9,090 nucleotides of DNA from Escherichia coli. GTDB taxonomy: Bacteria > Pseudomonadota > Gammaproteobacteria > Enterobacterales > Enterobacteriaceae. A program made the position numbers and the translations under genes. The stretch is taken from the NCBI RefSeq assembly GCF_003334355.1, contig NZ_QOWP01000060.1. One strand, given 5' to 3'. The notes under the pieces were generated by a model. That model was given only the letters and a program-made list of their open reading frames with translations, was not told where the DNA came from and did not search any database. Below, piece after piece: positions 1 through 1,639 of this stretch; position 1 is the stretch's first letter; every line of letters starts with the position of its first letter.

Positions 1-125
1 TGCAGTTGCCATGTTTTACGGCAGTGAGAGCAGAGATAGCGCTGATGTCCGGCAGTGCTTTTGCCGTTACGCACCACCCCGTCAGTAGCTGAACAGGAGG
101 GACAGCTGATAGAAACAGAAGCCAC
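1..125 (-). CDS. insA: InsA (IS1 transposition regulator), N-terminal 41 codons, truncated by window edge
   Basis: Minus-strand translation from GTG at 125-123 gives [41 protein letters not shown], the InsA N-terminus with its CxxC...CxxC zinc-finger-like motif. Not in the ORF track because the ORF runs off the window. Confidence 0.85.
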
Positions 126-157
126 TGGAGCACCTCAAAAACACCATCATACACTAA

Positions 158-180
158 ATCAGTAAGTTGGCAGCATCACC
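158..180 (-). repeat. IS1 terminal inverted repeat (IRL), about 23 bp
   Basis: Minus-strand sequence GGTGATGCTGCCAACTTACTGAT at the element terminus. Only this end is in the window, so the partner IR and target-site duplication cannot be examined. Confidence 0.85.
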
Positions 181-1639
181 CGCAAATAGATAACGATTTT
201 GGCCTGCATATCATCTATTTCCTGCAACATGGTCACTGGAAGGTAAATGATCGTAGTCACCAGATGGAGAAAGTATGGTTTTATAATAGTGAACCTTCTA
301 TAGATATTCAAGGATATAATAGATTCGCCGACAATACTACTGATACGTTTATCTTTACAATTATACCAGACAATAACCATGTGTTAAAATTATCGTCTCC
401 CATTACCGTTACTGTTGAGTGTAAGGGCGGTTATTATTTTATTAATTCCTCTGGAGATAAATCAGATATAATTTATAAAGTTGATGGGCTTTCTATCATA
501 GCGAGAAATTTCTTTACTCTTCTTAGTGGTAATTTCAAACCTGACTGGCGTTGGGATGTCTCTAAAGAGACGTTTACTAAGGAAAAGTTTGATAGCTATG
601 TTAAATCTGTGTTTTCAAAAATAGACTTCTATAAACAGTGTGGTGTGATTAACCCACAAAATGCCAACACGGCTTATTTTGGCGATACAGATGGAAGAGT
701 AGGCGCTGTACTTTATGCATTGCTCGTTTCAGGGCATATAGGCATCAGGGAAAAGGGTTGGAGTTTATTATGTGAATTATTAAAACACGAAGAGATGGCT
801 TCATCTGCATACAAACATAAAAATAATAAAGTGCTCTACGATTTATTAAATACGAGAGACATGATCTTGAATGAGTTGCATCAACATGTTTTTTTAAAGG
901 ACGATGCGATAACCCCTTGTATCTTCCTTGGGGATCATACAGGCGATAGATTTAGTACTATTTTTGGTGATAAATATATCCTTACTTTGCTAAATTCTAT
1001 GCGAAATATGGAGGGTAATAAAGATAGCCGTATTAATAAAAATGTCGTCGTTCTGGCTGGAAATCATGAAATCAATTTTAATGGTAACTATACTGCACGA
1101 CTAGCAAATCATAAACTCTCTGCCAGTGATACGTATAACTTAATTAAAACGCTCGATGTTTGTAATTATGACTCAGAAAGGCAAGTTTTAACCAGTCATC
1201 ACGGAATAATAAGAGATGAAGAAAAAAATGTTATTGTCTCGGTGCTTTGCAGGTTCCATTTAATCAGATGAAAAATCCTACTGATCCTGAGGAATTAGCC
1301 AATATTTTTAATAAAAAACATAAAGAACACATGGATGATCCTCTATTCCATCTAATCCGAAGCAATACTTTGAAACCCACACCTGTATATGCTAATTATT
1401 TTGATAACACTACTGATTTCAGACCAGCACGTGAACGTATCTTCATATGTGGGGAGACACTCAAAGGTGAAGACCCCAGCAAATACATTAGACAAAAATA
1501 TGGGCATCATGGGCCCGGGGTAGATCATAATCAACAATTTGATAATGGTATTATGGGGCTAAATTCCCTGAAGGAAGCACGTGATAAAAATAATAAAATA
1601 ATTTATTCCTCAGGGCTTAGTTGTTTTCAACCACATTAA
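181..1639 (+). pseudogene. yhiL: DUF4049-family gene, paralog of the downstream 540-aa gene (yhiL-like); 5' end removed by IS1 insertion and internally frameshifted
   Basis: ORF track fragments 264..1271 (frame 0) and 1247..1639 (frame 2) both align to the 1901..3523 product: AYFGDTDGRVGAVLYAL vs TYFGDTDGSVGAVLFAL; FLGDHTGDRF...VVLAGNHE vs FLGDQTGDRF...HVLAGNHE; DPEELANIFNKKH vs DPVELAAIINKKH. Frame 0 is open from the IS1 junction (181) to 264 and still encodes homologous sequence (LHIIYFLQHGHWKVNDRSHQ vs SIVYLLNNMTVNDNANDVAV), so the gene is interrupted at about the position of YhiJ residue 120. The frame switch lies around 1225-1255. Gene symbol is assigned from recalled K-12 synteny, not from a search. 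Confidence 0.75.

Follow-up and report, generated by a model that had tools for sequence, protein, structure and literature searches.

The stretch of Escherichia coli DNA analysed here (the window: 9,090 bases, identical to the whole short-read contig QOWP01000060.1 of GCA_003334355.1, our L025) begins inside a copy of IS1 that splits the gene yhiL. We consider it highly probable that a single 768-bp IS1 entered yhiL with duplication of a 9-bp target and that a deletion beside the same IS1 arose later in a sister strain, PSS-12; the gene also carries a frameshift. The event is ordinary and of a kind already annotated: IS1 has inserted, in one lineage, into a gene that is decaying. It is of little importance in itself, since yhiL is a gene of unknown function that K-12 has only as a pseudogene and of which many other strains have damaged copies. 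Window positions 181-9090 aligned over all 8,910 bases to K-12 MG1655 (NC_000913.3 3634310-3625401), without gaps and with 8 mismatches, K-12 homology beginning precisely at 181. The gene order in the orientation of the window was yhiL, yhiJ, yhiY, yhiI, rbbA, yhhJ and the last 114 bases of yhhI. Both contig edges fell in repeats, the left within IS1 and the right within yhhI, a multicopy H-repeat transposase gene (8977-9090; PF13808/PF01609). Only 180 bases of IS1 are visible because the short-read contig broke within this repeated element. Four further assemblies were 100% identical to the window, two of them spanning the IS1/yhiL junction. One otherwise identical contig (L024, 8772-10120) diverged at window position 8967 into an IS3-family transposase.

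Positions 1-180 contain, on the minus strand, the left (IRL) end of an IS1 that the contig edge truncates. They were identical to the last 180 bases of the K-12 IS1A at 179/180 positions, with the single mismatch at window position 54, and to the IS1 of PSS-12 at 180/180; the contig's gene call at 1..125 matched PF03811 (Zn_ribbon_InsA). The earlier note's assignment of this region to IS1 with its terminus at 180 thus stood when the alignment was run. The terminal inverted repeat occupies 158-180, reading inward as GGTGATGCTGCCAACTTACTGAT, and the element ends in ...GCATCACC at 180. Its partner in the imperfect repeat pair of about 23 bp that characterizes the family (GGTGATGCTGCCAACTTACTGAT / GGTAATGACTCCAACTTATTGAT) was located at the start of the element in PSS-12 and in the complete genome CP095454.1 (L038), and at the terminus of a separate contig, L042. 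Codons 1-41 of insA, the zinc-ribbon/HTH gene of the family, run from 125 to 1 on the minus strand from a GTG start at 125-123. The insB gene, which in this family follows insA and is expressed through a -1 frameshift, lies outside the window; the annotation of PSS-12 includes the complete InsAB' and its programmed frameshift. PSS-12 and L038 each have an element of 768 bp. The window copy therefore resembles IS1A in its terminal repeat, insA start and sequence, and differs from it in holding only the last 180 bases and in its position, as K-12 has no IS1 at the same genomic site. The IS1 portion of the query had about 76,000 matching places in 5,289 genomes.

The 3' remnant of yhiL, a member of the YhiJ/YhiL family (DUF6860 + DUF4049), extends on the plus strand from 181 to 1639, beginning at the second base of codon 50 and ending with the stop codon at 1637-1639. 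The junction corresponds to K-12 yhiL nt 148|149 and falls within codon 50 (T|CG). The gene has 535 codons, its frame in K-12 starting MKAIDNQ..., and many genomes encode an intact YhiL of 535 aa. Only 49 codons and 1 nt lie upstream of the junction and are cut off from the remnant, so the earlier estimate that roughly 120 codons had been removed was too high. That estimate drew on a proposed homology of the residues IIYFL...KVNDRSHQ to YhiJ 125-145; these are YhiL residues 60-76, and the alignment (BLASTP, 13.5 bits, E=24) is a chance match, the significant one pairing YhiL 126-512 with YhiJ 110-487 (BLASTP, E=3e-76). The note was right that the frame is already open from 181: it is open from 93 to 1271 across the junction, reading ...HHPQIDNDFGLHIIYFLQHGHWKVNDRSHQM. 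Within it, a residual ORF of 335 codons (264..1271, plus strand) runs from the first in-frame ATG (YhiL Met78) to a premature stop made by the frameshift. An exact look-up of the 335-aa product of the window found no called gene with this sequence. Both domains of the family, the PF21661 N-terminal domain and PF13258, were matched by the intact 535-aa YhiL and by the in-frame remnant of PSS-12, whose only differences from the window remnant are at 1125 and in the A-run. The intact frame of about 535-540 codons typical of the family is broken in the window both by the IS1 split after nt 148 and by the frameshift at 1222-1228, and the window yhiL is a pseudogene. It matched the K-12 pseudogene b4660 without gaps at 99.9% from nt 149 to the stop, the frameshift included, and differs from it by the additional IS1 split and by private substitutions at 313 and 1125.

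The remnant has neither a promoter nor a ribosome-binding site, and its native start codon is missing. A TTGGCA sequence occurs in the IS1 end at 166-171, and a promoter at the junction driving the remnant was considered and rejected: the promoter scan listed no hybrid promoter at the IS1/yhiL junction, and its 13 promoter-like sites were barely above the 8.2 +/- 2.7 found in shuffled sequences. A 73-codon minus-strand ORF also crosses the junction (window 159-380); the GenBank record of PSS-12 lists it as a gene (L003 9896-10117), but it has no Pfam match and is almost certainly spurious.

Beyond the left edge of the window, the structure was recovered from contigs of a sister sample. Logan sample ERR4578542 was the source of two contigs, L027 and L042, each recorded in the same six samples. 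L027 was 100% identical to window 155-9002, junction included, and begins ...GCATCACC|CGCAAATAGATAACG. A simple insertion predicts a truncated product of YhiL residues 1-52 plus Gly, ending at a stop codon (TAA) in the IS1 end (53 aa, MKAID...DNDSQIG), and an exact-sequence look-up found this product on 14 contigs, among them L042. The latter carries pitA-yhiN-yhiM and yhiL nt 1-157 followed by the IS1 right end, its terminus reading ...GATTCGCAAATAG|GGTAATGACTCC. Its yhiL portion ends in CGCAAATAG, the left copy of a 9-bp target duplication of which the right copy lies at window 181..189 (plus strand; K-12 yhiL nt 149-157, NC_000913.3 3634310-3634302). A duplication of 8-9 bp is characteristic of the IS1 family. 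In L038, a whole 768-bp IS1 flanked by CGCAAATAG sits at the same site in the same orientation, on a haplotype different from that of the window and with an IS1 that differs by 4 bases. The earlier note had proposed a search for yhiL coding sequence beyond the other IS1 end and for a flanking direct repeat; both exist, the first in L042 and the second across L042 + L027 and in L038. Its suggestion of a strain-specific insertion inside yhiL, at a locus where K-12 has no IS1, was likewise borne out. The intact left side would then apply to the window's own genome as well, given that the right-hand contig of the sister sample is identical.

Two ways in which the short-read data might mislead were weighed against this structure. 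Misjoins happen near contig ends, where this junction lies, and the IS1 piece might be an assembly artefact, a repeat misattached to the contig end; we find this scarcely credible, as the identical junction occurs in independent assemblies from different pipelines (L024, L027) and in two complete genomes, and a complementary left junction with the matching 9-bp duplication exists. It is very improbable that a larger IS1-flanked composite (Tn9-like, with cargo) lies in yhiL and was collapsed by short-read assembly. The contigs do end within IS1, leaving the interior unseen in the window lineage, but both complete genomes with the junction, PSS-12 and L038, hold a single 768-bp IS1. It is on these two genomes, not on the short-read assemblies, that the count of one IS1 copy between the junctions is based.

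Among 5,426 complete RefSeq E. coli genomes, searched for lineages that carry the junction, PSS-12 (NZ_AP027697.1) was the only one with it as one continuous match; a metagenome scan for the 30-base junction gave 0 matches. The IS1 of PSS-12 (L001 5413-6180, NZ_AP027697.1 3212782-3213549) has mismatched flanks (CCCTCCATG vs CGCAAATAG) and no target duplication. Its other side is joined to the intergenic region 3' of yhiN. PSS-12 lacks 1,795 bp at the IS1 right end, a stretch that takes in the left duplication copy, the yhiL 5' part, the spacer, all of yhiM and a further 203 bp. Absence of the target duplication is what one expects to see after a deletion beside an IS or after IS copies have recombined with one another (PMC11708052). 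The left flank of PSS-12 was 100% identical to L042 over 3,128 bases, and the substitution 313G was found only in the window and PSS-12 among 17 loci compared. Because of this flank identity and the common 313G, PSS-12 belongs to the clone background of the window after a later 1,795-bp deletion, and its allele is an IS1-adjacent deletion that would derive from a window-type allele. The PSS-12 allele is like that of the window in its IS1-yhiL junction, in 313G and in a left flank identical to that of the window lineage; it differs in the bases lost beside the IS1 right end, in an A8 rather than A7 run and in G at 1125.

We regard it as unlikely that the window genome is itself in the PSS-12 state, with yhiM and the 5' 148 nt of yhiL deleted and IS1 joined to the yhiN 3' intergenic region. 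PSS-12, the sole complete RefSeq genome with the junction, has precisely this structure and shares the private 313G with the window. However, PSS-12 is unlike the window at 1125, in the A-run and at 7586, the window-identical L027 co-occurs with the undeleted L042 in the same six samples, and the deletion junction was confined to PSS-12 among the 5,426 genomes. A left side modelled on PSS-12 (yhiM deleted, no duplication) was dropped once the predicted 53-aa product had been found. Taken alone, PSS-12 would have refuted the earlier note's reading, because yhiM and the yhiL 5' part are absent there, and the case is a caution that the sole complete genome with a junction can show a derived rather than the original state.

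A second lesion in yhiL is an A7 homopolymer at 1222..1228 (plus strand), which is one base shorter than the intact A8 allele and shifts the frame by -1. K-12 is in the same A7 state, as are L006, L011, L013, L015, L018 and the window, with A8 in the remaining sampled loci. A7 was also present in four independent window-identical assemblies and is therefore not a sequencing error; split by IS1 and slipped in the A-run, the gene is doubly dead. PSS-12 has A8 and is in frame for 488 codons, and a look-up of its in-frame 458-aa remnant returned PSS-12 only. The A8 of PSS-12 could be a long-read homopolymer error, which makes the order of IS1 insertion and frameshift uncertain. The scatter of A7 and A8 over unrelated haplotypes suggests recurrent slippage, and not a single ancestral K-12 event, as the probable source of the frameshift.

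The simple insertion that we prefer would have proceeded as follows. In one E. coli lineage, one 768-bp IS1 would have entered the AT-rich 5' portion of yhiL by transposition, duplicating CGCAAATAG and coming to rest with insA directed away from the remnant. The 5' piece would encode the 52 native residues and Gly, and the 3' piece would have lost its promoter and start codon; the -1 slip in its A8 run may have been acquired later or have been present already. In PSS-12, the same IS1 would have made the adjacent deletion from its other end. This order of events is the most plausible one to us, and the loss of yhiL was presumably selectively neutral. The locus offers a worked example of insertion, adjacent deletion and further decay, and the IS1/yhiL junction is usable as a clonal marker for the window lineage.

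In five other loci the same 9-bp target, CGCAAATAG, is occupied by an IS1 of the opposite orientation, with its IRL end to the left: L039 (6157-6368), L041 (6157-6232), L044 and L045 (4923-4951) and L047 (1958-1983). Complete genomes gave no single-piece match to this opposite-orientation junction, the allele occurring in draft and Logan assemblies only. As the opposite orientation is present in several unrelated assemblies, the CGCAAATAG site has been used independently at least twice. Other IS1 copies with 9-bp duplications were seen within yhiL (nt 109-117 and nt 41-49) and at two places in the spacer that separates yhiM from yhiL, with further copies between yhiN and yhiM and within yhiM; several of these other sites lie 500 bp or less from the insertion site of the window. 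The G+C content was 32% around the site, 35% in yhiL and 30% in the spacer, against 57% in rbbA. The AT-rich yhiL region thus appears, from its sequences, to be an IS1 hotspot. When the window site was compared with those of L015, L017, L018 and L019 (K-12 yhiL nt -313 to 157), four of the five regional target duplications ended in AG followed by ATA (CGCAAATAG|ATA, CGTGCAAAG|ATA, GCCATCAAG|ATA and AATGACGAG|ATA), and the IS1 copies at these AG|ATA sites were all in the same orientation. The boundary may reflect a target preference or coincidence. We put forward only tentatively, and lean slightly against, the idea that CGCAAATAG and its surrounding 500 bp or so might form a structure- or protein-directed IS1 hotspot, with at least three independent insertions at the same phosphodiester bonds in both orientations. 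Were it a true hotspot, the ...AG|ATA feature shared by the duplication boundaries of neighbouring sites could offer a natural model of how IS1 chooses its targets; the recurrence at one exact site in both orientations in any case adds a little to the evidence on target preference in IS1.

Classic studies in pBR322 and lac reportedly found IS1 insertion hotspots in AT-rich DNA. The yhiL site is like these in its AT-rich DNA, in the reuse of the same 9 bp and in its many neighbouring sites; it differs in being known here from sequences alone, and its recurrence could in part reflect recombination spreading one allele.

Damage at this locus extended well beyond the window lineage. A 1.8-kb segment covering yhiM and the yhiL 5' part was missing from about 21% of complete genomes, and in 266 blocks of the collection there were truncated yhiL products due to other lesions. 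The K-12-haplotype 335-aa ORF was looked up in order to find right-hand contigs of the opposite-orientation allele, but the loci returned had other 5' lesions. Many genomes lacking IS1 at the site (L048-L057) have the 335-aa truncated YhiL among their gene calls, and further 5' lesions must therefore exist; in L057 there is an IS1 in yhiJ instead. Both paralogs, yhiL and yhiJ, are decaying in various ways, and the yhiL region is dispensable, AT-rich and repeatedly struck by IS1. A literature search for yhiL/yhiJ returned nothing specific on the locus.

Other rearrangements were noted around the same genes. To the left of yhiM in many genomes (L005, L012, L013, L016, L018, L041 and L054), Tn7-like genes (TnsA, TnsD/TniQ) together with a pco/sil copper-silver resistance island took the place of yhiN or lay between it and yhiM, and the yhiN side seems to be an attachment site for a Tn7-like/pco-sil element. 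Tandem GFP-TetR-IS1 fragment repeats lay beside a truncated yhiJ in L007 (1-7606; GCA_047155015.1), from which yhiL and yhiM were missing; this looks like an engineered or evolved strain. The DUF4049 proteins of the window (yhiJ 1901-3523, yhiL 181-1639) carry GDxxG / GDxxDR / GNHE motifs. YhiJ matched PF13258 at E=1e-179 and had two weak Pfam matches, one to Metallophos at E=0.013 and the other to the WipA phosphatase domain at E=0.031, and the family looks like a diverged, predicted calcineurin-like metallophosphatase.
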